NCBI GenBank assembly: GCA_035714745.1
Contig: DASTLR010000020.1
Coordinates: 1-41,873 of the forward strand
DNA: 41,873 nt
Reading direction: 5' to 3'
Origin: Minisyncoccota bacterium
GTDB lineage: Bacteria > Patescibacteriota > Minisyncoccia > Phycocordibacterales > UBA6065
Part shown: positions 220 through 37,507 of the stretch, piece by piece
How positions within the stretch are numbered: the stretch's first letter is position 1
Layout: every line of letters begins with the position of its first letter
Position numbers and translations under genes: made by a program
Notes under the pieces: model-generated
Database searches by the model: none
The model's input: only the letters and a program-made list of their open reading frames with translations
Told to the model about the DNA's origin: nothing

Positions 220-254
220 TGGACGTGTGCGCAGAGCGCTTGACCTCACGTTCA

Positions 255-283
255 TTGCCGCCCCACGGCGGCTCGTGTATTAT
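255..283 (+). promoter_or_regulatory. Candidate sigma70-type promoter of the recombinase gene (leaderless arrangement)
   Basis: TTGCCG (255-260), 17-nt spacer, TATTAT (278-283), then 6 nt to the ATG at 290. Confidence 0.4.
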
Positions 284-289
284 CGCGCT

Positions 290-1957
290 ATGGGAAACGC
301 GACACGCTACTTCCTCTACGCGCGCAAATCATCAGAAGCGGAAGACCGACAGGTTCGCTCCATTGAGGCGCAACTCTCCGAGCTTCGGCAGATGGTCGAA
401 CGAGACCGCCTCATCGTCGTCCAAGAATTCAAAGAGGAGCAATCCGCGAAGACTCCGGGCCGTCCGATTTTCAACGAGATGCTCGCGCGAATCGAAGCCG
501 GCGAAGCCGACGGCATCTTGGCATGGCACGCTGACCGCCTTGCGAGGAACAGCCTCGACGGAGGCCGCGTCATCTTCCTTCTCGATACTGGCAAGCTCCG
601 CCGCCTCCAATTCTTCGGCGGCTACTGCGAGAACACACCGCAGGGAAAGATGATGCTCTCCGTCGAATTCGGCTTCTCGAAATACTACGTCGATTCGCTC
701 TCGGAGAACGTGAAGCGCGGCCACCGGAACAAAATCGCGCGCGGTGAATACCCAGGACTCGCACCGCTCGGCTACCAGAACGACCCGCGCCTGAAGCGCA
801 TCGTCGTTGACCGCGACCGCGCGCCAGTCGTCCGACGCGCTTTCGAGCTATACGCCACCGGGAGCGAAACCCTTGAGTCCATTGCGAAGCATTTCGCCGC
901 GCACTCAATCGTCACGCGGCGAACGAAAAAAGGCGAGGGCAAGCGGCCCCTTAACCGCAACAGCGTTTCAAAAATTCTCACGAACCCGCTCTACTACGGA
1001 CATTTTCGCTACAACGGGGAAATCCACGAGGGGAATCACGAGCCGCTCGTCACCAAGAAGCTGTTTGACGACGTGCACGCCGTTTTCGAGGAGCGGTTCC
1101 GCTATTCGATAGCGACCGTTGAGCGCCAGCCGAAGCCCCTCACGCGCCTTTTCCGCTGTGGCGAATGCGGCTGCTCCATCACCGCCGAAGTTCAGAAAGG
1201 CCACACCTACTATCGTTGCAGCAAAAAGCGCAAAGACCGCCATTGCTTCCAACCCTTTGTCCGCGAGGAAGCCCTCGACGTGCAACTCTCGGAGATGCTC
1301 GCGCAATACGCTCCCGGCAATCAGTGGGCGGACGAGATGCTTGCGATGCTTGAGACTGAGACCATCGGTGCGGCGAATGCCTCAGCGGTTCTCCTAGTCG
1401 AACACCGGGCAAGCGCCGAACGCCTCAATGCCCGCTTGCAGCGGCTCAAAGAGGGCTATCTCGACGCACTCATCGAAGGCGACGATTTCCGAAACGAGAA
1501 AGCTGCCATCCTGAGCGAACGGAAGACCCTCACTGAAAAAATCGACGCGCTCACCAACGACAACAACAGGTGGCTCGAACCATTCCGAGAATGGATTTCC
1601 GACGCTCAACGAGTGGGCGCAGTCGCCGAGCACGGTTCACCCGAAGAGAAACGAGCACTCGCCAAAAAAGTCTTCGGCTCGAACCTGTTCCTGACCGACC
1701 GGAAAGCCCGAGGGGAAGCCGTCGAACCGTGGTCGCTACTGTCTGGTGGATACACTGGTTTAACTACTGCGGAGAGGGGGAGATTCGAACTCCCGAGAAG
1801 CTTTCGCCCCTGCCAGTTTTCGAAACTGGTGCATTCGACCACTCTGCCACCTCTCCAGGGGTTGCCGGTCTATAGCGCTCCAATACTAGCACTTTTTGCA
1901 GAAATGGCAAAAACTAGGCGGCGCTGGCCGTCGATCCGGGTGCCCTTCTGTCGCTGA
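290..1957 (+). CDS. Large serine recombinase (resolvase N-domain, recombinase domain, zinc ribbon, coiled coil)
   Basis: N-terminal YFLYARKSSEAEDRQVRSIEAQ...ADGILAWHADRLARN resolvase-type catalytic region. Zinc ribbon CGECGCSITAE..YYRC. ATG 290 is preferred over the track start at 227. The 3' end is uncertain because the frame runs through the right repeat arm and antisense over tRNA-Ser. Confidence 0.85.
   Translation: MGNATRYFLYARKSSEAEDRQVRSIEAQLSELRQMVERDRLIVVQEFKEEQSAKTPGRPIFNEMLARIEAGEADGILAWHADRLARNSLDGGRVIFLLDTGKLRRLQFFGGYCENTPQGKMMLSVEFGFSKYYVDSLSENVKRGHRNKIARGEYPGLAPLGYQNDPRLKRIVVDRDRAPVVRRAFELYATGSETLESIAKHFAAHSIVTRRTKKGEGKRPLNRNSVSKILTNPLYYGHFRYNGEIHEGNHEPLVTKKLFDDVHAVFEERFRYSIATVERQPKPLTRLFRCGECGCSITAEVQKGHTYYRCSKKRKDRHCFQPFVREEALDVQLSEMLAQYAPGNQWADEMLAMLETETIGAANASAVLLVEHRASAERLNARLQRLKEGYLDALIEGDDFRNEKAAILSERKTLTEKIDALTNDNNRWLEPFREWISDAQRVGAVAEHGSPEEKRALAKKVFGSNLFLTDRKARGEAVEPWSLLSGGYTGLTTAERGRFELPRSFRPCQFSKLVHSTTLPPLQGLPVYSAPILALFAEMAKTRRRWPSIRVPFCR
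1690..1771. repeat. Right arm of the 82-bp perfect inverted repeat (partner 138..219)
   Basis: Reverse complement of 138..219. Lies inside the recombinase 3' coding region and overlaps the last 2 nt of tRNA-Ser. Confidence 0.9.
1770..1856 (-). tRNA. tRNA-Ser (anticodon CGA)
   Basis: Minus-strand cloverleaf. Acceptor GGAGAGG/CCTCTCC with discriminator G, anticodon loop TTCGAAA, long variable arm, T arm GGGAG-TTCGAAT-CTCCC. No encoded CCA. Confidence 0.9.
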
Positions 1958-5421: not shown

Positions 5422-5958
5422 ATGCACCCCATACACTTCCGGCATTGGACCGCTGCCGACATGGCCGTATTGGCCCAGCTCGCGGGATCTCCGCATACGA
5501 CGTTCGAAGACCTCGGGGCGCTTGCCCTGGCCATCGTCAGACGGCACGGCGGGCCGCTTCACATGGTCTCGGGACCCATCACTACCGGAGGATTCGGCTC
5601 GATTCCCGATAATTTGAGAGTCTTCTGCGGTGTGATCGAGCACTTGGCCGACGAAGGCTTCGATATGTTCAGTCAACGGCCCTTCGAGATCGCCCTGCGG
5701 CGGCTCTTCGACGAATGGACGCTCAGGAATCCTCCGGACGAATACTGTCACGCCCTCCTGGAAGGCTTCTATCGGCCCATCTATGAGAGCGGCTGCATCG
5801 GCGCTATGCACTTCATGCATGGCTACGAGACTTCGAAAGGGGCGCTCTGGGAATTCGAAGGCTGTCCCGGTTGGCGTATCGAGCGGCGCGTGCTGTCGCA
5901 GGAAGTTTCCCTCGCAGTCCATGCCAGGCTCGGCGGCGTGGTGATGAGTGGGCGCTGA
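5422..5958 (+). CDS. Hypothetical protein, DUF4406 / nucleoside deoxyribosyltransferase-like
   Basis: Only the part of ORF 5011..5958 downstream of ATG 5422 avoids overlap with the M23 gene. VSGPITTGG....N..F pattern resembles DUF4406 (from memory). Confidence 0.4.
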   Translation: MHPIHFRHWTAADMAVLAQLAGSPHTTFEDLGALALAIVRRHGGPLHMVSGPITTGGFGSIPDNLRVFCGVIEHLADEGFDMFSQRPFEIALRRLFDEWTLRNPPDEYCHALLEGFYRPIYESGCIGAMHFMHGYETSKGALWEFEGCPGWRIERRVLSQEVSLAVHARLGGVVMSGR

Positions 5959-6123: not shown

Positions 6124-7047
6124 ATGAACACTGCACATAATAAAGCATCGAACGGCCTGGGGATACTCCTCGCGGCCATAGTAGTCATATTGGCGGCGAT
6201 CTCCTTTACGACCGACTCGCACGCCCAGACGGGATCTATTAACGGAACGGTGACGGGCACTACCACTGACCCTGAGTCCGGCATATCGGGCGTCACAGTT
6301 AGCGGCGGCGCTGACGGCACGGCTCACATCCAATGGAAAACAGAACATCCTTCGACTTCATGGGTATCGTACGGTATATTAGGCGCGCCGTATACGAGCG
6401 TAACGCCCGTCGACGTCACGCTGACTACGGATCACGCGGTCACAATCACTGGATTGACGACCGACACGGCGTATCACTACTCGGTATCGTCGAGAAGCGC
6501 CTCTGGAGACACCGTCTCATCCCTCGACCGAGCCTTTGTGATAGTCGCGGTAACGAATTCAGGAAACGCGACAAGTACGGATACGGGAACGAGTACGGCG
6601 AATAGCGACCAGGCTCTGACGGACAGGATCGCGAGCCTGGAAGCCGAGGTAAGCTCGCTTCGTAGCCAGCTCTCGAACCTATGGCTCCAATTCCAGGCCT
6701 TCATAGCCTCGGTAGGAGCAGGGGGATCGAATAGCGGCGGCAGCGGCTCGGGCAATAACGGCACGAGCACCGGCTCGACCTCCGCTTCGGGCGCATACGT
6801 GACGGCGAACAGCTCGTCCGTGCGCCTGGGGACATCGGTAGACTTCATGGGCCACGGCTTTTGGGCAGACGAGCCGGTGACGGTCATGAGCAACGGCTCG
6901 ACGGTAGCCACCGCGCACGCGGACAGCATGGGCAATTTCAGCACCGGTTCCATGCCTATCCAGTCGACGCAGGGCAGCCAGGCATTCTCCTTTAGGGGGT
7001 CCTGGAGCGGCCTGACCGCTACGGGCATGGTCAATGTCACGCAGTAG
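6124..7047 (+). CDS. Secreted surface protein (Fn3-like domain, coiled coil, Gly/Ser linker, C-terminal beta domain)
   Basis: N-terminal TM/signal. HIQWKTEHPSTSWVSYG...ITGLTTDTAYHYSV is Fn3/PAP-N-like. LEAEVSSLRSQLSNL forms a coiled coil. GGSNSGGSGSGNNG linker. Confidence 0.6.
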   Translation: MNTAHNKASNGLGILLAAIVVILAAISFTTDSHAQTGSINGTVTGTTTDPESGISGVTVSGGADGTAHIQWKTEHPSTSWVSYGILGAPYTSVTPVDVTLTTDHAVTITGLTTDTAYHYSVSSRSASGDTVSSLDRAFVIVAVTNSGNATSTDTGTSTANSDQALTDRIASLEAEVSSLRSQLSNLWLQFQAFIASVGAGGSNSGGSGSGNNGTSTGSTSASGAYVTANSSSVRLGTSVDFMGHGFWADEPVTVMSNGSTVATAHADSMGNFSTGSMPIQSTQGSQAFSFRGSWSGLTATGMVNVTQ

Positions 7048-8500: not shown

Positions 8501-8815
8501 GAAAGGGGAGCGAGTAGTCTTTATGAGCCCGTTAAGCACTTTATGGGCTTCCGTTGCAGCTAAGTATAAGCGGTCGAAGTCGTTTTGTGAAATATATTCG
8601 AGGTCTCTGGCGAGCAATAAATGGTTTTTGACTTCGGTGATAGAGCCGTTTGCGTGAGTGTGGTAATTTGCCTTGTCCTTGTACGAAAGTCTGCCAAAGC
8701 CCTCGGCAATATTCGCACCGATCGAAGCCGCTGACCTCCTGATTTGTGAAGTAATACCAAAAAGTTCCTCTTTAGGGAACTTTTTGGTGACCTTATAGAT
8801 TCCAAATTCTAACTT
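8498..8815 (-). pseudogene. Four-helix-bundle protein (23S rRNA intervening-sequence protein family), 5'-truncated
   Basis: Minus-strand frame reads (KLEFG)IYKVTKKFPKEELFGITSQIRRSAASIGANIAEGFGRLSYKDKANYHTHANGSITEVKNHLLLARDLEYISQNDFDRLYLAATEAHKVLNGLIKTT*. It lacks the family's N-terminal helix. There is no ATG/GTG/TTG near the 5' end, and the frame opens inside the repeat arm. Confidence 0.7.
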
Positions 8816-8829: not shown

Positions 8830-10017
8830 TTACTTCTTCCTGCGGAGGAACGCCGGCACGGCGCCCCAATCGTCGTCGTCATGGTCGATGGTCGGGATGG
8901 CCTTGTCCTCCTTTGGAGGGGTGACGACGTTGTGGATCTGCTTCTTGTCTTCCTCTCTTCCTTTCTTGCTCTCTTCCTTTCTTGCTTCCTCTTTCTTGTC
9001 TTCCTTCGTCTCGGCAGGGCCGCTGAAGAGCGACTTGGCCTTGGTGGCTGGGTGGACCGGGCCGTCGCCGAAGCCGGTGGCGATGACGGTGACCTTGACC
9101 TCGCCCTTCTTGAGCTTCTCGTCGCGGACGGTTCCAAATATGACCTTGGCGTTAGGGTCGATAGACTCGGTGATGACCTTTGCGGCGTCCTGGATCTCGA
9201 ACATGGTCAGGTCGTCCCCGCCGGCGATAGAGAAGAGCACGCCCTTGGCGCCGGCGGTCGAGATGTCGAGGAGCGGCGAGGAGATGGCCATCTTTGCCGC
9301 GTCGGTGGCGCGGTTGTCGCCCTGGGCCATGCCGATGCCCATGAGGGCGGCTCCGGTGTTCTCCATGATCGAGCGGACGTCGGCGAAGTCGATGTTGATG
9401 ATGCCGGGGGTGGTGATGAGGTCGGAGATGCCCTCGACGGCCTGCTTCAATACCTCGTCGCACTGGGCAAAGGCGGCGCGGGCGGTGGTGTTCTTGTCGA
9501 TGGTGGCGAGCAGCCGGTCGTTCGGGATGACGATGATGGCGTCAACCTCCTTGCGCAGGTTCTCCAGGGCGATGTCGGCGACCTTCATGCGCTGGGTGCC
9601 CTCGAAGAAGAACGGCTTGGTGACGACGGCCACGGTCAGGGCGCCGAGCTCCTTGGCGGTCTTTGCCACGACGGGAGCGGCGCCGGATCCGGTGCCTCCG
9701 CCCATGCCGCAGGCCACGAAGACCATGTCCGAGCCCTTGAGAGCCTCCTGGAGCTCTTCTTTCGTTTCCTCCACGGCGCGTCGGCCCAGCTCAGGATTCA
9801 TGCCGGTGCCCAGGCCCTTGGTCAGGTTCTTGCCGATGTGGATCTTCTTTTTCGCCAGGGAGTGGTGGAGGTCCTGCGCATCGGTGTTGACCGCGATGAA
9901 ATCGACTCCCTTTACCTTGGAGTTGATCATGTGGTTGATGGCGTTCTTGCCGGAGCCGCCTACGCCGAGGACTTTGATGCGGGCGAACGTCTCGACTTCC
10001 GGTACGATGTTTGGCAT
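8830..10017 (-). CDS. ftsZ: Cell division protein FtsZ
   Basis: GVGGSGKNAINHM, GGGTGSGAAPVVA tubulin signature, charged C-terminal linker and conserved tail. Start set at MPNIVPEV. Confidence 0.97.
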   Translation of the reverse strand: MPNIVPEVETFARIKVLGVGGSGKNAINHMINSKVKGVDFIAVNTDAQDLHHSLAKKKIHIGKNLTKGLGTGMNPELGRRAVEETKEELQEALKGSDMVFVACGMGGGTGSGAAPVVAKTAKELGALTVAVVTKPFFFEGTQRMKVADIALENLRKEVDAIIVIPNDRLLATIDKNTTARAAFAQCDEVLKQAVEGISDLITTPGIINIDFADVRSIMENTGAALMGIGMAQGDNRATDAAKMAISSPLLDISTAGAKGVLFSIAGGDDLTMFEIQDAAKVITESIDPNAKVIFGTVRDEKLKKGEVKVTVIATGFGDGPVHPATKAKSLFSGPAETKEDKKEEARKEESKKGREEDKKQIHNVVTPPKEDKAIPTIDHDDDDWGAVPAFLRRKK

Positions 10018-11881: not shown

Positions 11882-12262
11882 TTAGATGCCGAATTCCTTG
11901 CGCAGCTTCGCTTCCGTTCTCTCCATTGTAACCCCATGGTCCATTCCTTTCAAATGGACAAGCGCGTGGATATAGAGAAAGGCGATCATGTTCGAGGGCG
12001 TCCTGCCGAACTCGTGCGCCTGGCGCCGGGCTTCCAAGGGATTGATGAAGACCTCGCCCGCATCGGGGCCGAGCTCGAAGGAGAGGACGTTGGGGACGTA
12101 GTCTTTGCCGCGGTGCCTGATGTTGAGCTCGCGGGATTCCTCATCGCCGACGAAGGCCAGCGACAGCTCGTAGTCAGGGCCGAGGGCCGCGTCTTTTATA
12201 GCGGCAAAAGCCACGCGCGGGAGCGTGGCTTTCGTTTTGTTGAGTATGGAGATATTCTTCAT
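11882..12262 (-). CDS. ybeY: rRNA maturation RNase YbeY
   Basis: HALVHLKGMDH zinc-binding motif, about 126 aa. Confidence 0.85.
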   Translation of the reverse strand: MKNISILNKTKATLPRVAFAAIKDAALGPDYELSLAFVGDEESRELNIRHRGKDYVPNVLSFELGPDAGEVFINPLEARRQAHEFGRTPSNMIAFLYIHALVHLKGMDHGVTMERTEAKLRKEFGI

Positions 12263-16165: not shown

Positions 16166-17317
16166 TCCCGCGAAGGCCAGGGTCATCTTCTGGTTGGCGG
16201 CGTCGAAGAGGGTGATCTTGAACGGATAGACCTTGCCCAGCTCCAGGTTCTGGCGGAGCTTCTCGTCCGAGCCGAACTCCGAGACGTGGACCAGGCCGGC
16301 GATGCCTTCCTCGATCGAGGCCAGGGCGCCGTGGCGGTTGAACTTGATGACCACGCCCTTGACCTGCATGTCCTTCTTGTACTTCTTGCCTGCCTCGGAC
16401 CATGGGTTCGGCTTGAGGGCCTTGATGGAGAGCGAGACCTTGCCGTCCTTGACCTCGATGACGCGGACGCGGACCTTGTCGCCGACCTTGAAGCGGGTCT
16501 TTGGGTCCTCTACGAGCGCCCAGTCGATCTCCGAGATATGGACGAGGCCCTCTAATCCTTCGTCGATCTTGACGAAGACGCCGAAGTCGACCATGCCGGT
16601 GACCTTGCCGTCGACGTCGTCGCCGACCTTGAACTTGGCCACCGCCGCGGTCTTATCCTTGCTCTCGACCGAGTTCTTCTCGGAGAAGATCAGCTTGCCC
16701 TCCTTGGGGAAGGCGCCGATGATGGAGACGGCCAGCTTCTGGCCGACGAGCTTCTTGAGCTCGACCAGGATCGAATCCTTGTCGCCGTCCTGTACGCGCG
16801 GATAGTGCTCGGGCTTGAGCTGGGAGGCAGGGAGGAAGCCCTGGATGCCTTGCCACTCGATGATCAGGCCGCCCTTGTTGGCCTCCTTGATAGGGAGCTC
16901 CAGGACGCGCTTCTCGACGATGGCCTGCTCGGCCTCGGTCCAGATCAGGGCCTGTCGGGCCTCCTTGAGGGAGAGCTCGACGTAGCCTTCCTTGTTCGAG
17001 GCGTCGACGACCTTGGCCGAGACCTTGTCGCCGATGTTGACCTTCTTGATGACGTCGCGGGCCAGGATGTATTCGCGGCCGTAGATGATGCCGGTGCCGA
17101 ACGGCGGCAGGTCGACGAAGACGCCCTTCTTGTCGATGGCGATGACGGCGCCCTCTACCAGGTCGCCGACGGCCGGCGGCACAGGGGACTGGGCGAGCAT
17201 CTTGCCCATAGGGGTCTCCGACCTCTTCTTTGACTCCGCCTCGGCGGCGAGCATCGCCTCGGTCTTCTTCTTGGCGACCTTCTCTTTCTTAGCTTTTACT
17301 TCTTTTTCGATTGTCAT
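16154..17317 (-). CDS. rpsA: 30S ribosomal protein S1 (four S1 domains)
   Basis: Repeated S1 OB-fold units (GDLVEGAVIAI.., GDKVSAKVV.., GDDVDGKVTGMVDFGVFV.., VKGVVIKFNRHGALASI). Confidence 0.85.
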   Translation of the reverse strand: MTIEKEVKAKKEKVAKKKTEAMLAAEAESKKRSETPMGKMLAQSPVPPAVGDLVEGAVIAIDKKGVFVDLPPFGTGIIYGREYILARDVIKKVNIGDKVSAKVVDASNKEGYVELSLKEARQALIWTEAEQAIVEKRVLELPIKEANKGGLIIEWQGIQGFLPASQLKPEHYPRVQDGDKDSILVELKKLVGQKLAVSIIGAFPKEGKLIFSEKNSVESKDKTAAVAKFKVGDDVDGKVTGMVDFGVFVKIDEGLEGLVHISEIDWALVEDPKTRFKVGDKVRVRVIEVKDGKVSLSIKALKPNPWSEAGKKYKKDMQVKGVVIKFNRHGALASIEEGIAGLVHVSEFGSDEKLRQNLELGKVYPFKITLFDAANQKMTLAFAGEKK

Positions 17318-17604
17318 AAATGATCCCCAGGGGATAATGAAAACATAGTCGCTACGCTCCTTGTTTTCAATAAAAAAGCCCGAAATTTCTCTCCGCGCAG
17401 TTTCTCGAAGCCGTGCTCCCTAGAGAGCGCCTGCGGAAAGGGTTAATTTCAAGGGTATTTCCTTGTAATGCCGGCAAAAACGTAGGTTTCGGCTAGCTAG
17501 GGCACTCTACCATATCCGGCGGAAAATGGAAGAGCCGTCCTTGAAGCAAAAGTTGTTAAATTTTCTTTAAGATTCCTTTATCTCTCGTTTGCTAGGTTCG
17601 AGAG

Positions 17605-18015
17605 ATGGATGCTCCTCGCAATCTTCGCGGCGCTATCAAAGAAATGTACCCTTTAGATAAAGGGGTTTTGATAGCGCGGCCGATAGATGACATACGGCTT
17701 GGACATCGGGTATCCATAAGCAGGAGGGCGTTGAAGCATATCATCGAAGAAAGGAAGGCGGACGGCTATTCTCTAGACAAAATATACAGGCTGCTCGTTC
17801 GTGTGCTTAGAGCAGTTCGCAGACCAGGATTGATCGCGAAAAATCTTAATAAAAAATATCCCAACAGCATCGTCTTTGGAAGGTCTTTTACGCTGACCAA
17901 AGAATACGCTGTCGTGATATGCGAGCCAGAGGGGGAATCGTTCCGCATTATCAATGCGTTCTACCGCTCAAAGTCAAAGTACGACAAGCTTAAAGCAAAA
18001 AGTGAACGTCGCTAA
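17605..18015 (+). CDS. Hypothetical protein in an AT-richer islet (possible BECR-fold RNase-like toxin)
   Basis: 136-aa basic protein. ISRRALKHIIEERKADGY is reminiscent of phage-associated BECR nuclease N-termini (weak, from memory). Confidence 0.4.
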   Translation: MDAPRNLRGAIKEMYPLDKGVLIARPIDDIRLGHRVSISRRALKHIIEERKADGYSLDKIYRLLVRVLRAVRRPGLIAKNLNKKYPNSIVFGRSFTLTKEYAVVICEPEGESFRIINAFYRSKSKYDKLKAKSERR

Positions 18016-18114
18016 TTTGCTACCCGAGGGGCGGAATGCCCTTTCAGGTCTATCCCTCATCTGTTCCCGGTCGTCCGGGCCCGACAGCCTCCTTTCTGTC
18101 CTTGGTAGCAAATT
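18014..18114 (+). other. Candidate structured RNA / palindromic element
   Basis: 11-bp closing stem AATTTGCTACC/GGTAGCAAATT encloses three hairpins at 18029-18041, 18066-18079 and 18083-18100. Confidence 0.25.
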
Positions 18115-31760: not shown

Positions 31761-31793
31761 ATACAGTTTATGGCTCGATCTGAGCCTCATAGG

Positions 31794-31875
31794 TGGGCGG
31801 AGAGGGACTTGAACCCTCATGCCTTGCGGCGCGAGCTCCTAAGGCTCGTGTGTCTGCCAATTCCACCATCCGCCC
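31794..31875 (-). tRNA. tRNA-Leu (anticodon UAG)
   Basis: GGGCGGA acceptor, GTGGAATTGGCAGAC D arm, anticodon loop CTTAGGA, long variable arm, T arm GAGGGTTCAAGTCCCTC. Confidence 0.9.
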
Positions 31876-31977
31876 GGTAGGGACAGCTTAGCACAGACGC
31901 CCTGTACTTCGTACAGGCGCGGCTTCGCTCGGAAAAGCCGGAATGAGACAAAATCTCTTCCCGGCTTTTCGCTCACG

Positions 31978-31988
31978 TGTCCGCCCTG
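31978..31988. repeat. Direct repeat TGTCCGCCCTG (copy of the tRNA-Lys 3' end), left boundary of the PheRS-like islet
   Basis: Identical 11-mer at 33509..33519. Both copies are preceded by a hairpin and TTTTCGC. Base composition becomes AT-richer immediately to the right. Confidence 0.6.
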
Positions 31989-32235
31989 ATGTACGAAGTT
32001 AGAACCGCCCTTGTTGCCATTGCTGATATGCTAATTTAATGATATTGTATTAGCAATGAAAAGCATTAACGAAAAACTGGCCTCCCAGAACGCCCTCTCA
32101 AAGGGTCATGTTAATGCTGTCTCTACTTCTTCGTCTTTTGCCTTTGCCTTCTTTTTTGCTGCTTAAGCAGCAACTTAATCTATCAAATTCGATTTATCGG
32201 CAAATTAACCCTCCCTATGGGGAGCCTAAAAACGT

Positions 32236-33369
32236 ATGAAAATGTATATCAAACCCCTTGGCAAAAGGGAAATTAATGAATACTTAGCAATCACTGACCT
32301 TACCCAGTCACCAAAGCCCCACGCTGTCAAAATGGTGTACGAAAAGGTCAGGGATTACATGTATTCGACTCACAAAGAAAGCGATGTTCAGATATGCCGG
32401 AAGGACCCTGTCGTCACGGTGGCGGACAATTACGATAACCTACTGTTCTCGGCAGATAACATGGGTCGCTCTTCGACGTACACTCACTACATTGATCAGA
32501 CCCATATTCTCTGCACGCATACGACCGCCCATATTCCGGGAATCTTGAGAGATCTAGCAAAACGCAGCGACTGGCAGGACGTCCTCGTCTTGCTTCCAGG
32601 ACTGGCGTATCGAAGGGATGTTGCAGACAAAAAACATGTTGCCCAAGTGCATATGCTCGAGATGTGGCGCGTCGTCAACAATGCAGCGCGCAAAGTCATC
32701 ACGAAAGATGATTTGCTCGATGTGGTTAAGGGAGTTGCAAATACGGCGGCTCCCGGATGGAGACTGCGAATTGAGGATTCTCCGCACCCATATACCAAGG
32801 GCGGTATTGAGGTGAACGCGATGAAAGATGATCGGGATATCGAAATCCTCGAGTGCGGCCTTATCAAGGATGAGATACTTGCGAACGCCGGACTCGATCC
32901 TGAAAAGTATTCAGGATGGGCACTGGGTATGGGACTGGATCGACTCGTCATGACGCTCAAAGACATTCCAGATGTTCGCTACTTGCGATCCAGTAATCCA
33001 AAGATAGCAAAGCAGATGGAAAACCTTGAGACGTATCATGAGGTATCGAATCAGCCCGCTATCAAGCGAGATCTCTCGTACATCGTTCCGAAGGAATATG
33101 TGGAGGAGGATATCAGCGACGACATTCGCAAGGCGTTGGGCGACAAGGTGGATACTTTGGAAAGCGTTGAGATACTCAGCCAAACAGCATATGGGGAATT
33201 ACCCGAAAAAGCTCGGCAAAAGCTTGGCTGCGGTCCCGAACAAAAGAATGTGCTGGTGCAAATTACGCTTCGGCATCTTGAGCGAACTCTTACGGGCGAG
33301 GAAGCGAATCAGATATACGAGCAGACGTACAAACAGATAAATAAGGGCACTGGAGGTTACCTTAAGTAA
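32236..33369 (+). CDS. Monomeric (mitochondrial-type) phenylalanyl-tRNA synthetase-like protein: class IIc catalytic core fused to an FDX-ACB domain
   Basis: Collinear with remembered FARS2/PheS motifs. DPVVTVADNYDNLLFSADNMGR, ILCTHTTAH (LRTHTS box), AYRRDVADKKHVAQVHMLE (motif 2), GWALGMGLDRLVM (motif 3). The C-terminal part, NQPAIKRDLSYIV...ITLRHLERTLTGEEAN, is typical of FDX-ACB. Confidence 0.75.
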   Translation: MKMYIKPLGKREINEYLAITDLTQSPKPHAVKMVYEKVRDYMYSTHKESDVQICRKDPVVTVADNYDNLLFSADNMGRSSTYTHYIDQTHILCTHTTAHIPGILRDLAKRSDWQDVLVLLPGLAYRRDVADKKHVAQVHMLEMWRVVNNAARKVITKDDLLDVVKGVANTAAPGWRLRIEDSPHPYTKGGIEVNAMKDDRDIEILECGLIKDEILANAGLDPEKYSGWALGMGLDRLVMTLKDIPDVRYLRSSNPKIAKQMENLETYHEVSNQPAIKRDLSYIVPKEYVEEDISDDIRKALGDKVDTLESVEILSQTAYGELPEKARQKLGCGPEQKNVLVQITLRHLERTLTGEEANQIYEQTYKQINKGTGGYLK

Positions 33370-33467
33370 CCCTAATACTTGTCGTCACGGGTTTCCTCAC
33401 GCCGTCGCGCTCGCAACCCGCGACCCCGCCTCGCGGTCTCGCGAGGCGCTCGACATCGCTCCGGCTC

Positions 33468-33513
33468 GGACAAGCGAAATCCCTGCCACTGGCAGGGATT
33501 TTCGCGCTTGTCC
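33468..33513 (+). terminator. Long hairpin at the right end of the islet (possible terminator)
   Basis: GGACAAGCGAAATCCCTGCC-ACT-GGCAGGGATTT(T)CGC(G)CTTGTCC. A second 9-bp GC hairpin lies at 33427-33448. Confidence 0.4.
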
Positions 33514-33519
33514 GCCCTG
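33509..33519. repeat. Direct repeat TGTCCGCCCTG overlapping the 3' end of tRNA-Lys
   Basis: Identical to 31978..31988. Confidence 0.6.
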
Positions 33520-33583
33520 TAGGGATCGAACCTACGACCTTATCCTTAAGAGGGATCTGCTCTACCAACTGAGCTAAGGGCGG
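33511..33583 (-). tRNA. tRNA-Lys (anticodon CUU)
   Basis: TAGCTCAGTTGGTAGAGC D arm, anticodon loop CTCTTAA, T arm GTAGG-TTCGATC-CCTAC, acceptor CCGCCCT/AGGGCGG. Confidence 0.85.
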
Positions 33584-33676
33584 ATATACTGCTCTGTCTG
33601 TCGCTTGGAAAATCTAACAGAAAAAGCGCCGGTTGGCAATGCGCCGGAACTGCCGGACGCGCCGCGCTCTTCCGTG

Positions 33677-33758
33677 TGCCTGGGGTGGGCATCGAACCCA
33701 CATCTCTTGCGAGACACGATTTTAAGTCGTGCGCGTATACCAATTCCGCCACCCAGGC
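33677..33758 (-). tRNA. tRNA-Leu (anticodon UAA)
   Basis: GCCTGGG acceptor, anticodon arm CACGA-CTTAAAA-TCGTG, long variable arm, T arm GTGGGTTCGATGCCCAC. Confidence 0.9.
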
Positions 33759-33783
33759 GTATCGCCGCCGACCGTCCACCGAG

Positions 33784-33855
33784 AGGCCACGGCGGGAATC
33801 GAACCCGCGCATAGGAGTTTTGCAGACTCCCGAATTACCACTTTTCTACGTGGCC
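33784..33855 (-). tRNA. tRNA-Cys (anticodon GCA)
   Basis: GGCCACG acceptor, anticodon arm GGAGT-CTGCAAA-ACTCC, discriminator U73 as expected for tRNA-Cys. Confidence 0.9.
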
Positions 33856-33883: not shown

Positions 33884-34210
33884 TTAGGGCCGTATCGTGA
33901 TAGCGTCAATTTTCTGGCGGGCCTTCTCGCCCTTGTCGATCTCGAAGTCGAAGAAGGGGATGCGCATCAGGCGGGCGTGGCTTTTGACGTACTCCCGGAA
34001 ATCCGAGCGCTGGCGCTTGAGGAAATCGATGGCCGCGCCCTCCTGGCTGTCGGGATAGACGGTCAAAAAGACGGTGGCTAGGGCCCCGCGGTCCTTGGTC
34101 TCGACCCGGGTGACGGTGATCATCGACGTGCGGTTCGACTCCAGGGCGATGAAGCGCGCCGCCATGTCGCGGATGATCTCGTCGAAACGCTCGTCTTTTA
34201 TAGTATTCAT
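33884..34210 (-). CDS. rbfA: Ribosome-binding factor A
   Basis: About 108 aa. ITVTRVETKDRGALATVFLTV and MRIPFFDFEID patterns. Immediately downstream of infB. Confidence 0.85.
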   Translation of the reverse strand: MNTIKDERFDEIIRDMAARFIALESNRTSMITVTRVETKDRGALATVFLTVYPDSQEGAAIDFLKRQRSDFREYVKSHARLMRIPFFDFEIDKGEKARQKIDAITIRP

Positions 34211-35800
34211 CTATTTCTCTACGATTATGAAATCCTCGATGACGTCGCCCGGCGCCAATTCGATCTGCGCCTCGACCATGGCCCCGAACTCGAAGCCTTC
34301 CTGGACGCTCGAGGTCTTGACCTTGGCCTGCTGGAGCTCGCGGATCAGGCCCTCGCCGATCAGGGTCTCGCGGCGCAGGATCTTGACCCGGTGGCCCACC
34401 GAGATCTCTCGGTCGGTCACCTTGCCGCCGACGATCTGGCGGTCCTTGGCGCGGCTAAAGAATTTCAGGACCTTGGCCTTGCCGACGACTTCCTCGCTCT
34501 GGACCTTTGGCTCGCGCTCCTTGACCCGCTCCTCGAGCCATTCGCGCAGGTTGTAGATGATGTCGAAGGTGGCGTGGGCGATGCCCAGGCGCTCGATCAT
34601 GGCGGCGGCCTGGCTGTCGGTCTTCACATTGAAGCCGACGACCAGGACGTCCGAGCTGCCCGCAGCCACCTTGATATCAGACTCGGTGACGTCGCCGATG
34701 GAGGCCGAGACGGTCTTGAGGGCGACGCGCTCGTTATGGATCTTCTTGATCTCGTGCTCGATAGCCTCGACCGAGCCCTGAACGTCAGCCTTGATGATGA
34801 GAGGAATGACCTTCTTCGGCGTTTCTTCAGCGGCCTCTTCTCTGGTGTTCTTAGTGTCCCCCGTGCTCTTCGTGTTCTTTGTCCTCTCTTCCTCTTCCGC
34901 CATCTCCACGTATTCCTCCAGATCTTTCTTCGATTCGAAGGTTACGAAATGTCCGCCGACCTGCGGGGCCTTGTTCCAGCCGACCAGGCGCACGGGCGAA
35001 GAGAAAGCAGCTTCGGATATCTTCTTGCCCAGGTGGTTCTCGATGATGCGGGTAGGGGAGAAAGCCGAACCGCAGGCCACGAACATGCCGGGGCCCATGG
35101 AGCCGTCCTTGATGACCAAGGTGGCAGAAATGCCTTTCTTTGGATCGCGGTGGGCCTCGATGATGACGCCTTCGGCTGGTTTTGCAGCGTCGCCTTTCAG
35201 GTCTGCGACGTCGGCGGTCAGAATGATGAGGTCGAGCAGGTCGTCTACGCCCGCGCCAGTCTTTGCCGATATCGGCACATAAGACACATTGCCGCCGAAG
35301 CCTTCGACGTAGATGCCGGCTTCAGCCAGGGTCATCTTCACGCGCTCGACGTTGGCTGCTGGCTTGTCGATTTTATTGATAGCCACGATGAAAGGCACTT
35401 TGGCCTTCTCGATCTCTTTATACGCGTCGATGGTCTGTGGCTTGACCCCGTCCTCGGCCGAGACGACCAGGATGGCCACGTCCGCCGTGCCGGCGCCGCG
35501 CTCGCGCATGCCGGAAAAGGCCTCGTGGCCGGGAGTGTCGATGAAGGTGATCTTTTCAGGGGCGCTCGAGGCGCCGTTAGCGCCGTCCTTGGCTGGGCGC
35601 TCGACTTCGTAAGCCGAGATGCGCTGGGTAATGCCGCCGGCTTCGCCTTCGACTATATTAGTCTTCCGTATGTAGTCGAGGAGGGTCGATTTGCCGTGGT
35701 CGATGTGCCCGAGTATGGCTACGACGGGAGGGCGCTTGACCAGAGCGCCGGGATTTCGAGGCGAAGCGCCGCCCGCGGGTTGTGTTTGATGTTTGGCCAT
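34211..35800 (-). CDS. infB: Translation initiation factor IF-2 (short form)
   Basis: G domain with AILGHIDHGKSTLLD, DTPGHEAF and NKID motifs, followed by the C-terminal IF-2 domains. Confidence 0.95.
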   Translation of the reverse strand: MAKHQTQPAGGASPRNPGALVKRPPVVAILGHIDHGKSTLLDYIRKTNIVEGEAGGITQRISAYEVERPAKDGANGASSAPEKITFIDTPGHEAFSGMRERGAGTADVAILVVSAEDGVKPQTIDAYKEIEKAKVPFIVAINKIDKPAANVERVKMTLAEAGIYVEGFGGNVSYVPISAKTGAGVDDLLDLIILTADVADLKGDAAKPAEGVIIEAHRDPKKGISATLVIKDGSMGPGMFVACGSAFSPTRIIENHLGKKISEAAFSSPVRLVGWNKAPQVGGHFVTFESKKDLEEYVEMAEEEERTKNTKSTGDTKNTREEAAEETPKKVIPLIIKADVQGSVEAIEHEIKKIHNERVALKTVSASIGDVTESDIKVAAGSSDVLVVGFNVKTDSQAAAMIERLGIAHATFDIIYNLREWLEERVKEREPKVQSEEVVGKAKVLKFFSRAKDRQIVGGKVTDREISVGHRVKILRRETLIGEGLIRELQQAKVKTSSVQEGFEFGAMVEAQIELAPGDVIEDFIIVEK

Positions 35801-36499: not shown

Positions 36500-37507
36500 A
36501 TGAAGAAGAATGTGAAGGGCGCCGCGGGCGCCGGGCGGGGCATCGTCATTTACCAGGACGTGCACGGCAACGTCGAGCTCAAGGCCGATATCAAAAAAGA
36601 GACGATTTGGGCGACACAGGCTCAGATCGCGGAGCTTTTCGATATCGATCGAACGGTGGTCACAAGGCATATCAATAACCTTATCAAGAGCGAGGAGATC
36701 GACATAAAAAGCAATGTGCAAAAAATGCACATTGCTAATTCCGATAGGCCGGTAGCGTTATATTCGCTCGATATGATCCTGGCTGTCGGCTATCGCACCA
36801 GCTCGTTCAAAGCTATAGCTTTCAGAAAATGGGCCACAAAGGTCCTTCGAGACTATATCCTCAAAGGCATGGCTGTGAACGCCGATAGGATCGAGAAGCT
36901 TCACGAAGCCGGCATACGCGACCTGCGAGAAAAGCTCGCCTTCATCCAGCGCACGGTCAGGAACCGCGAGCTCGACAGGTCCGAGGTGGACAGCCTGCTT
37001 TCCGTCATCGGCGATTACGCGAATTCCTGGCTGCTCCTAAAGAGATAAGACGAGGGCACGCTATCCGCCGCCGCTTCGAAGCAGAAGGAGAAGCGCGAGA
37101 TCGACTATGATTTCGCCCTGCTCGCCATCAGCAAGCTCAAGGCAGACCTGGTCGGCAAAGGCGATGCGGGCGAGCTCTTTGGCCATCAGCGCGACGAGTC
37201 GTTCAGCGGCATCCTTCGCACGCTCTACCAGACCTATGGCGGCCGGGAACTGTATGGTACGCCCCAGCTCAAGGCCGCGCACCTTCTCTATTTCGTCATC
37301 AAGGACCATCCTTTCTCCGATGGCAACAAGCGCATCGGCTCCTTTCTCTTTATCGTCTTTCTGGAGAGGAACGGCATGTTGTTCGCCAAGGATGGCGAGA
37401 GAAAGATCGCGAGCAATACCCTTGTCGCCTTGGCCTTGCTCATCGCCGAGAGCGCACCGCGAGAGAAAGAGACGATGATTGCATTGGTCACGCATCTTAT
37501 TGCATGA
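36500..37507 (+). pseudogene. RhuM-family / Doc-type Fic fusion gene interrupted by an in-frame TAA (37046-37048)
   Basis: The N-terminal part is a typical RhuM (QAQIAELFDIDRTVVTRHINN, YSLDMILAVGYRTSS..FRKWAT). The same frame continues after the TAA as DEGTLSAAAS...KDHPFSDGNKRIGSFLF (Doc-type motif HxFxDGNKR) to TGA 37505-37507. The second part has no start codon of its own. Confidence 0.75.

Follow-up and report, generated by a model that had tools for sequence, protein, structure and literature searches.

SrmL, a PheS-related ligase with a phenylalanine-codon leader, in a cassette-like insert beside tRNA-Lys in Saccharibacteria

Why would a chromosome of the Saccharibacteria carry, among its tRNA genes, a compositionally deviant gene for a single-chain relative of phenylalanyl-tRNA synthetase (PheRS), and what could such an enzyme do there? 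We considered this question for a stretch of 41,873 nucleotides from a Minisyncoccota bacterium (contig DASTLR010000020.1 of assembly GCA_035714745.1, positions 1 to 41,873; hereafter the window), in which an open reading frame (ORF) at 32236-33369, srmL, lies next to a tRNA-Lys gene. The window is a Saccharibacteria chromosome segment that encodes GyrA, ClpB, HisRS, ribosomal protein S1, FtsA, IF2 and RbfA, and the nearest homologues of the srmL protein are labelled Saccharibacteria or Saccharimonadales. The reading developed below, to which we give about an even chance, is that SrmL is an accessory ligase that would be induced by stalling at Phe codons and would help to restore decoding there.

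By family assignment the protein is a clear member of SrmL (NF051887) and not a PheRS by any curated model. On the NCBIfam model NF051887, 'PheS-related mystery ligase SrmL', it scored 414.5 bits (cut-off 300; E 3e-124), the alignment covering positions 2-349 of the 349 in the model, and it stayed below the cut-offs of both the mitochondrial PheRS model pheS_mito (TIGR00469; 164.5 bits, cut-off 258) and the bacterial PheS model (TIGR00468; 86 bits, cut-off 237). Pfam placed a tRNA-synt_2d domain at residues 27-260 (E 6e-29) and an FDX-ACB domain at residues 271-373 (E 2e-10), both above the gathering scores, and the motifs ILCTHTTAH (91-99), AYRRDVADKKHVAQVHMLE (124-142), GWALGMGLDRLVM (227-239), NQPAIKRDLSYIV (272-284) and ITLRHLERTLTGEEAN (343-358) were all present. 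SrmL is a named NCBI family without an assigned function, and a literature search on 'SrmL' and 'PheS-related' returned unrelated acronyms and no SrmL paper. The family is a broad one; when cluster representatives were searched exhaustively, 119 matched at E <= 1e-30, many of them over the full length and with 27-56% identity. Ten members from this identity range scored 219-481 bits on NF051887, seven of them passing the cut-off and the three most divergent falling just below it. Across Saccharibacteria the identity was 63-96%, with strong purifying selection.

An AlphaFold2 model of the protein (predicted local distance difference test score of 85.7) had human mitochondrial PheRS (mtPheRS) as its best PDB matches, with Foldseek template-modelling (TM) scores of 0.73-0.78 over the full length in the closed form and, for entries 5MGV and 3CMQ, E-values of 7e-26 over about 400 aligned columns. 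The best PDB match by sequence was also mtPheRS (E 1e-28), and bacterial PheS matched only the core of the model. A first-pass annotation of this DNA had described a class II core fused to an FDX-ACB domain in the single-chain mitochondrial architecture, and had quoted the motifs given above; the domain searches and the structural matches agree with this description, and a reading of the protein as a PheRS is not supported by the family models. We also rejected a specifically mitochondrial ancestry. When searched alone, the core gave 77 bits to mtPheRS and 69 bits to Escherichia coli PheS, and the FDX-ACB domain gave 22 bits to mtPheRS and 21 bits to its bacterial counterpart. Because these separate scores are about equal, the likeness to mtPheRS is architectural and not demonstrated common descent.

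Is such a protein still equipped for the chemistry of a synthetase, and for that of a PheRS in particular? To assess residue conservation, 120 sequences from Saccharibacteria were aligned with 72 broader representatives. The ATP-binding arginines of motif 2 (R126) and motif 3 (R236) were invariant (120/120 Saccharibacteria, 71-72 of the 72 broader representatives), and with both of them kept SrmL should form an acyl-adenylate. In the PheRS of Thermus thermophilus, F258 and F260 stack on the substrate ring and F216 stacks on the adenine (PMC8555319). The positions of F258 and F260 correspond to H184 and Y186 in SrmL, and all 120 Saccharibacteria sequences and most other members have H184-P-Y186, so that the FPF clamp on the Phe ring is HPY throughout the family. 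At the F216 position Saccharibacteria SrmL has V138 and other SrmL mostly Pro; at the position of T. thermophilus Q218 it has Met (M140), with Gln elsewhere; and E142 stands where most other members have Asp. The pocket is still lined with aromatic residues and retains the Ala equivalent to E. coli A294.

The third altered surface is the anticodon-binding domain. Human mtPheRS reads G34 via Asp364, Phe366, Ser375 and Arg414, and D364G abolishes its activity (PMC7540514). The positions of D364, F366 and S375 are occupied by S315, T317 and N338 in SrmL, a residue mapping that is approximate as the loop alignment is gapped. N338 lies within an invariant Gln-Lys-Asn, and the domain carries an extra 11-residue insertion with a conserved Arg-Leu-Gly. 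A family signature, consisting of H184/P185/Y186/T187 and the R329-L330-G331 insertion (K at 329 in the window), is conserved in the 120 sequences from Saccharibacteria and in the majority of the 49 other H184-type representatives. The ten representatives with FPF retained Asp, an aromatic residue and Ser at the G34 positions and had no insertion. The first-pass annotation had noted that several substrate-contacting positions differ, and the alignment extends this observation to the whole family; the loss of the G34-reading residues and the leader ORF described below were absent from it. Judged by these residues, SrmL is catalytically equipped, with three specificity surfaces rebuilt in a conserved way.

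Which condition would call for such an enzyme? About 200 bp upstream of srmL were conserved between loci of otherwise unrelated context, and this region contains a short ORF rich in Phe codons. In the window, all on the plus strand, the features of this region and the gene itself are:

32020-32048: putative promoter, with -35 box TTGCTG, a 17-nt spacer and an extended -10 box TG-A-TATTGT ending 7 nt before the leader ATG
32056-32166: leader ORF of 36 codons, MKSINEKLASQNALSKGHVNAVSTSSSFAFAFFFAA followed by its stop codon, with a homologous short ORF in related srmL loci
32156-32173: hairpin UUGCUGC-UUAA-GCAGCAA, whose loop contains the leader stop codon and whose pairing is conserved across 10 loci
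32211-32224: hairpin CUCCC-UAUG-GGGAG sequestering the srmL Shine-Dalgarno sequence, from the RNAalifold consensus and minimum-free-energy folds
32236-33369: srmL, 377 aa, from NCBIfam NF051887, Pfam, the AlphaFold2 model and Foldseek

Of the first 14 Saccharibacteria loci, 12 had a homologous leader ORF that ended 65-89 nt upstream of the srmL start, as did L033-L035. In L040, the most distant leader-bearing member (56% protein identity), it was found ~280 nt upstream; there, a (TTATTACTTA)n microsatellite of about ten copies (L040 500-596) lies between the Phe-leader and srmL and lengthens the gap. We distinguish two designs of the leader RNA, type A, to which the window belongs, and type B. 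The window peptide ends ...SFAFAFFFAA, with 5 Phe in its last 9 codons, other type A leaders end ...SFFFGFFAA or ...RFFFAFFFAV, and type B leaders read ...NFFMTSSLGGLAGFTK or, in L008, ...SFFFFTAS.... A Phe run was present in all 16 leader-bearing loci read, with translation predicted. Among short ORFs of similar size in these loci, 17 of 1,585 (1.1%, the leaders themselves counted) had at least 4 Phe in their last 10 residues. In the same 16 loci an extended -10 box, TGnTAnnnT, stood 6-7 nt before the leader ATG (for example window 32040-32048 and L002 about 8796-8805), and no Shine-Dalgarno sequence was visible before this ATG; a generic promoter scan chose a neighbouring, weaker register than the promoter proposed at 32020-32048. 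The arrangement suggests a leaderless mRNA for the leader peptide, with a predicted 5' end at about 32055-32056 in the window, where the leader ORF begins. A T-box or other known RNA leader was considered and rejected, as Rfam matched only tRNAs at gathering and at permissive thresholds.

The two designs differ in what follows the Phe codons. In type B a 1:2 hairpin comes after them, then a GC-rich terminator hairpin and its U-run and, directly behind these, the srmL Shine-Dalgarno sequence. In L006 the three interacting segments changed together from GGGGG/CCCCC/GGGGG to GGAGG/CCTCC/GGAGG, which is compensatory. When folding was modelled with a ribosome parked on the Phe run and segment 4 still untranscribed, segment 2 paired with segment 3 in 5/5 loci; in the equilibrium fold with region 1 masked the terminator was still preferred, so that the antiterminator appeared only in the co-transcriptional setting. 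As modelled, type B is a textbook terminator/antiterminator attenuator. Type A has a structured 5' domain followed by the two hairpins listed above. The stop-codon hairpin UUGCUGC/GCAGCAA was paired in 98.6% of cells across 10 loci, with 2 compensatory pairs in L040, and RNAalifold found covariation at 4 pairs of the Shine-Dalgarno hairpin. A leader peptide rich in the codons of one amino acid typically marks a gene whose product makes up for a lack of the corresponding aminoacyl-tRNA. The conserved Phe-leader thus suggests a tie between the SrmL family and the decoding of Phe codons, and is the best functional clue at this locus.

On this basis we propose that, when Phe-tRNAPhe is scarce, ribosomes would stall on the Phe codons of the leader, the downstream RNA would refold and srmL would be expressed; for the type A leader of the window we infer the refolding step. 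SrmL would then act as an accessory, starvation- or inhibitor-induced ligase that restores the aminoacyl-tRNA supply for Phe codons, working alongside the essential PheS/PheT and recognising its substrates differently. This would make it a second, differently built PheRS, possibly insensitive to a blocker of the housekeeping enzyme. We set the probability of this functional claim at no more than about 0.5 because the residues that recognise Phe, adenine and G34 have been lost in a conserved manner, and this loss argues against ordinary Phe-tRNAPhe synthesis. Several observations on the leader likewise weigh against the proposal. The type A leader has no canonical terminator, and thermodynamic modelling with a ribosome on the Phe codons did not open the srmL ribosome-binding site of the window, with opening seen only in L015, L004 and L033-L035. 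Since U-rich RNA yields Phe codons in any frame, RNA structure could account for some of the Phe residues. Finally, no Phe-leader was found before srmL outside Saccharibacteria and the Candidate Phyla Radiation (CPR), that is, in the proteobacterial, actinobacterial and phage loci (L016, L037, L041, L044).

The same observations lend themselves to a different account, in which SrmL is a neo-functionalised ligase that uses a substrate other than Phe (a ring-substituted aromatic or another acid), an acceptor other than tRNAPhe, or both, and in which the leader is a regulatory input or provides feedback on a different product. The family-wide replacement of three specificity sites (HPY; Val or Pro; S/T/N with the Arg-bearing insertion) would fit such an enzyme, as would its failure at both PheRS equivalog cut-offs, the choice of 'mystery ligase' as a name by the NCBI curators and the lack of a visible Phe-leader outside the CPR clade. 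Against this stand the aromatic lining of the pocket with its retained Ala, the intact and strongly conserved FDX-ACB domain, which argues for an RNA partner, and the leader, which is kept down to 56% protein identity and in two RNA designs, a classic sign of a gene that remedies a shortage of the matching aminoacyl-tRNA. We consider neo-functionalisation a tentative reading, with odds clearly below even. A related reading is also doubtful in our view: SrmL may represent a new aminoacyl-tRNA synthetase-like specificity and not a spare PheRS, being a mobile, single-chain ligase of CPR bacteria, Proteobacteria, actinobacterial plasmids and a huge phage that would load a non-canonical aromatic and/or read a tRNA or other RNA through its rebuilt anticodon-binding surface, and whose synthesis in Saccharibacteria would be wired to stalling at Phe codons. 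If true, this would be a horizontally spreading device that alters delivery at UUY codons, or that uses a tRNA outside translation, under Phe limitation.

The distribution of srmL bears on two further readings. The gene neighbourhood differed in every locus examined, inside and outside Saccharibacteria, and a search for conserved partner genes across these neighbourhoods brought out no operon partner. In other genomes srmL often lies less than 300 bp from a tRNA gene (Pro, Leu, Met) or beside integrase, insertion sequence (IS) or relaxase genes. Directly beside srmL we noted an rve integrase in L014 (2049-2986), and Replic_Relax and an IS1595 transposase in L035 (11164-14036); the dtd and abhydrolase neighbours in L037 are presumably ordinary Pseudomonas-type synteny. 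The gammaproteobacterium Saccharospirillum mangrovi, with a genome of 3.7 Mb, has a homologue whose UniRef name is already SrmL. Homologues were found on plasmids and in a phage, those on actinobacterial plasmids having 39-43% identity:

L041, 7004-8122: SrmL homologue on the Glutamicibacter plasmid pGnB68, downstream of cmx in an antibiotic-resistance mosaic
L043, 7001-7630: truncated SrmL homologue on the Corynebacterium diphtheriae plasmid FRC0402_p2, between erm(X) and a tet efflux gene
L042, 6848-7960: SrmL homologue on an Azotobacter plasmid, amid IS elements and a VapC/Phd toxin-antitoxin pair
L044, 8010-9089: SrmL homologue in the 635-kb uncultured phage LR745206

Could SrmL then be a resistance or immunity gene, as the first-pass annotation had also suggested? 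It would in that case be a mobile, inhibitor-insensitive PheRS whose expression begins once the housekeeping enzyme has been poisoned, and thus one particular form of the accessory ligase proposed above. Carriage on plasmids, in a huge phage and in tRNA-linked cassettes would suit this role, and altered adenine and amino-acid pockets are expected of an enzyme that excludes an aminoacyl-adenylate mimic. Induction by stalling at Phe codons fits as well, the two actinobacterial plasmid copies are embedded among antibiotic-resistance genes (cmx in one case, erm(X) and tet in the other), and Saccharibacteria live on Actinobacteria (PMC10633639). The plasmid neighbourhoods are, on the other hand, IS-rich mosaics that include a truncated copy, and since only one plasmid had srmL paired with cmx, we treated this linkage as incidental. 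Resistance does not explain the lost G34-reading residues, a defence-system role was not indicated by PADLOC, which gave no match for srmL, and PHROG matches to SrmL were weak and of the PheS/PheT type. In addition, we know of no natural PheRS inhibitor that suits the ecology of Saccharibacteria. A resistance function is therefore improbable on present evidence.

The first-pass annotation had further proposed that the gene replaces the heterotetrameric PheRS in a reduced genome. Strong purifying selection at 63-96% identity across Saccharibacteria would be expected of a sole PheRS, and the window holds no pheS or pheT; a search for these genes or for a second PheS-like ORF found none in the 41.9-kb window and ~340 kb of related loci, which is uninformative given the small genome fraction sampled. 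In the cultured Saccharibacterium Southlakia epibionticum, however, both pheS (SEML1_0572) and pheT (SEML1_0562) are essential by transposon sequencing, and its tables list one PF01409 and one PF03147 protein only, and hence no SrmL (both from the supplements of PMC10633639). Relatives with this locus have no srmL at the site, and the composition of the gene marks it as foreign. Large genomes and mobile elements carry members of the family too, and the PheRS specificity residues have been lost. These findings leave the replacement proposal with very little credence. A 2026 preprint on Saccharibacteria mentions pheS only as a counter-selection marker.

How did srmL come to lie beside tRNA-Lys? 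The features that frame it in the window are:

31792-31875, minus strand: tRNA-Leu(tag), from ARAGORN and Rfam, the left neighbour of the insertion site and last member of the Cys-Leu-Lys-Leu cluster, conserved in relatives
31932-31970, no strand assigned: hairpin GAAAAGCCGG...CCGGCTTTTC followed by TTTTCGC, read from the sequence
31978-31988, plus strand: distal copy of the 11-bp core, TGTCCGCCCTG, an attR-like remnant, by exact match
33384-33508, no strand assigned: GC-rich, hairpin-rich 125-bp segment between srmL and tRNA-Lys, alignable to L030
33509-33519, plus strand: proximal copy of the 11-bp core, attL-like, equal to the 3' end of tRNA-Lys, by exact match
33510-33583, minus strand: tRNA-Lys(ctt), the insertion target, from ARAGORN and Rfam
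33676-33758, minus strand: tRNA-Leu(taa), from ARAGORN and Rfam, part of the conserved chromosomal frame
33783-33855, minus strand: tRNA-Cys(gca), from ARAGORN and Rfam, part of the conserved chromosomal frame
33884-34210: rbfA, after tRNA-Cys(gca), part of the conserved chromosomal frame
34211-35800: infB, after rbfA, part of the conserved chromosomal frame

A metagenome scan with the neighbouring IF2 gave 16 related loci, with 46-75% identity to the window in IF2 and 68-85% in ClpB, in which the order ClpB - NifS - infB - rbfA - tRNA-Cys - Leu(taa) - Lys(ctt) - Leu(tag) was kept. The spacer between tRNA-Lys and tRNA-Leu(tag) varied as follows:

L019: 58 bp, empty
L029: 29 bp, empty
L022: 16 bp, empty
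L017: 981 bp, with unrelated cargo
L020: 1,224 bp, with unrelated cargo including an HD-domain protein
L025 and L031: about 450 bp, with unrelated cargo
L021: end not reached, with a large serine recombinase gene directly after tRNA-Lys

Further cargo was found in other spacers of the cluster in L020, L022 and L026. The 3' end of tRNA-Lys was duplicated in L017 as a perfect 26-nt direct repeat (5869-5894 and 6265-6290, 396 bp apart) and in L020 as an 11-nt repeat (9405-9415 and about 10004, 590 bp downstream), each with different cargo. In these Saccharibacteria the Cys-Leu-Lys-Leu tRNA cluster is a hot spot for insertions. Of note, L022 has a 21-nt (95%) repeat of the 3' end of tRNA-Cys (12008-12028 and 12123-12143), and the small cargo genes in the cluster spacers encode an HD-domain protein, SPFH with an O-methyltransferase, a tRNA-binding protein with GIY-YIG, and membrane peptides.

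Within the window there are two exact copies of TGTCCGCCCTG and no more, at 31978-31988 and 33509-33519; the latter consists of the last 9 nt of tRNA-Lys and 2 further nt, and both are preceded by a hairpin and TTTTCGC. The core of the tRNA-Lys insertion site can also be written CAGGGCGGACA. In dinucleotide shuffles of the 1.6-kb spacer the exact 11-mer recurred in 7 of 20,000 cases (chance ~4e-4), and any 11-mer from the tRNA 3' region in 19 of 5,000 (chance ~4e-3); because of these frequencies we take the repeat to be more than chance. The composition of the insert deviates from its surroundings. The GC content of 31989-33508 was 48.9%, compared with 59.1% for the window, and that of the srmL ORF 48.7%, within the lowest 2% of segments of the same size. 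At third codon positions the GC fraction (GC3) of srmL was 0.55, compared with 0.79 +/- 0.11 in 17 other window ORFs and a range of 0.76-0.92 in the nine recognisable housekeeping genes among these (ClpB, GyrA, IF2, HisRS, S1, FtsA, TrxR, RbfA, NifS). Across loci, srmL had a GC content of 39-49% while that of the hosts spanned 33-59%. One locus, L013, carried srmL at the same site, with a protein 96% identical. Its homology to the window begins at 31975, at the distal repeat, and beyond this boundary lies a different 1.5-kb module (NUDIX and small ORFs), followed by the same tRNA-Leu.

The right-hand end of the insert requires a correction. The region 33370-33508 is 66% GC, and 33384-33508 is ~73% alignable to the segment that follows tRNA-Lys in L030 (L030 1104-1230), with compensatory changes in a long hairpin. 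Because this segment is common to L030 downstream of its tRNA-Lys, we place the srmL-specific DNA at ~31975-33383. The long, terminator-like hairpin (~33464-33514) runs into the 3' end of tRNA-Lys, which itself forms the outer arm (CGGACAAGCG...CGCTTGTCCG; in L030, with its compensatory changes, CGGACAAAAT...ATTTTGTCCG). The segment had no Rfam match; it could be an arm of the element or of a recombination site, a native terminator, or a small RNA. On the other side, the hairpin at 31932-31970 is probably a native spacer that once directly followed tRNA-Lys. Its place in the order of features matches that of the terminator-like hairpin found behind tRNA-Lys at the empty site of L019; the two sequences are only weakly similar, an equally high score being reached by 89 of 2000 shuffles, and we rejected homology of the distal flank to that empty site as a basis for argument.

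The first-pass annotation had thus been correct in placing the gene amid four tRNA genes, in an AT-richer islet without an integrase that is bounded by an 11-bp repeat with a hairpin and TTTTCGC before each copy, and the empty tRNA-Lys site that it proposed to look for exists in relatives. Its reading of the region as an islet is supported, as empty and differently filled sites speak for insertion at tRNA-Lys, with the qualification that the last ~125 bp, being shared with L030, do not belong to the srmL-specific DNA. Because the empty and other-cargo sites, the duplications of the tRNA end, the L013 boundary, the varied neighbourhoods and the deviant GC content come together, our comparisons support a tRNA-targeted insertion, in which a mobile one-gene cassette was placed 3' of tRNA-Lys. 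This cassette of ~1.4 kb would be self-contained, with its own promoter, leader ORF and gene, and would have entered downstream of the 3' end of tRNA-Lys(CUU), inside the conserved Cys-Leu-Lys-Leu cluster. A site-specific recombinase supplied in trans probably carried out the insertion and would have left the 11-bp duplication of the tRNA end.

Some observations do not sit easily with this scenario. A 125-bp segment that is not part of the cassette lies between srmL and the tRNA end, the repeat measures only 11 bp and has decayed to 8/11 matches at the same place in L013, and the insert has no ORFs apart from the leader and srmL, so that it lacks an integrase and no recombinase is linked to the cassette; large serine recombinases lie elsewhere, at window 227-1957 and beside tRNA-Lys in L021. 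One may therefore ask whether the repeat is a coincidence and srmL arrived by another route, such as illegitimate or homologous recombination in a variable hot spot. The shortness and decay of the repeat, the interposed segment and the weak resemblance of the distal flank to L019 are all compatible with this, and any 2-kb stretch contains many approximate repeats of at least 10 nt. The low chance of an exact core, the tRNA-Lys end duplications in L017 and L020 and the coincidence of the L013 homology boundary with the repeat speak against it, and we judge a coincidental repeat unlikely.

Three other places in the window deserve mention. A 576-aa large serine recombinase (Resolvase, Recombinase and Zn_ribbon_recom domains) is encoded at 227-1957 on the plus strand; its ORF ends at, and as called overlaps, tRNA-Ser(cga) (1769-1856, minus strand), and the protein is 22% identical to the recombinase that adjoins tRNA-Lys in L021. 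Together with tRNA-Ser it may form a second tRNA-associated integrated element in the window. A second patch of low GC (0.45-0.50, as low as the srmL region) at ~17200-18050 includes an ORF of 136 aa (17605-18015, GC3 0.50) with no Pfam match, and may be another small foreign insert. Finally, an ORF at 36500-37048 (plus strand), between a DUF4446 gene and a NifS-like gene, has RhuM-family 'virulence protein' and helix-turn-helix domains; RhuM genes are often carried by islands or prophages.

What do these results add? Membership in the SrmL family, tRNA-linked insertion and leader-peptide control are each of a kind already known. Apparently new are the Phe-leader, conserved in two designs, an explicit signature of specificity residues, and the mobility of srmL in Saccharibacteria as a cassette-like unit. 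Phe leaders in two RNA designs point to a shortage of Phe-tRNAPhe as the condition that requires SrmL, and the residue signature (HPY, loss of the adenine-stacking Phe and of the G34 triad, the Arg-bearing insertion) separates SrmL cleanly from true monomeric PheRS and locates the change in specificity. For a family that is widespread and named by NCBI, the leader, the signature and the mobility make the question of function testable. An inducible or inhibitor-proof PheRS would be relevant to the physiology of Saccharibacteria, epibionts that rely on amino acids from their hosts, and to antibiotics directed at PheRS; a new substrate would mean a new natural aminoacyl-tRNA synthetase specificity and a candidate orthogonal pair. 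SrmL also offers a bacterial counterpart for discussing how the monomeric architecture of mitochondrial PheRS can arise.

Altogether, the locus can be compared with several known systems. Like tRNA-targeted integrative islands, the srmL insert is flanked by a direct repeat of a tRNA 3' end and deviates in composition, and in relatives the site is empty or the same tRNA is followed by other cargo; it differs from them in being tiny (one gene, about 1.5 kb), in having no integrase of its own and in its core of only 11 bp. With human FARS2 (mtPheRS; PDB 3CMQ, 5MGV, 3TUP) SrmL shares a single chain, a class IIc core with a C-terminal FDX-ACB domain and the motif-2 and motif-3 arginines, whereas it fails TIGR00469, has HPY for FPF and S/T/N for D364/F366/S375, carries the extra 11-residue insertion and has no targeting peptide. 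Compared with most other NF051887 members, the Saccharibacteria clade has V138 and not Pro, M140 and not Gln, E142 and not Asp, and in addition the Phe-leader.

The closest regulatory parallels are attenuators. The pheST operon of E. coli is a classical attenuated aminoacyl-tRNA synthetase operon, and classical attenuators lie upstream of trpS and leuS in Streptomyces (PMC1262725). The E. coli pheST (pheM) and pheA (pheL) attenuators resemble the srmL region in having a short ORF with a run of Phe codons before a Phe-related gene, and resemble the type B leaders in their four-segment 1:2 / 2:3 / 3:4 terminator logic. They differ in that there is no sequence homology, the srmL leader mRNA is apparently leaderless and the phylum is another one (Patescibacteria); compared with them, the type A leader of the window has hairpins over the stop codon and the Shine-Dalgarno sequence instead of a canonical terminator. 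The window peptide, ...FAFAFFFAA, recalls the ...FFFAFFFTFP of pheL. As an analogy for the proposed function we consider trpRS1 of Streptomyces coelicolor, reportedly an attenuator-controlled, indolmycin-resistant second synthetase. In contrast to SrmL, trpRS1 is a bona fide TrpRS with a known inhibitor; like the accessory ligase that SrmL may be, it is a non-housekeeping synthetase, preceded by a leader with codons for its own amino acid and induced when charging fails.

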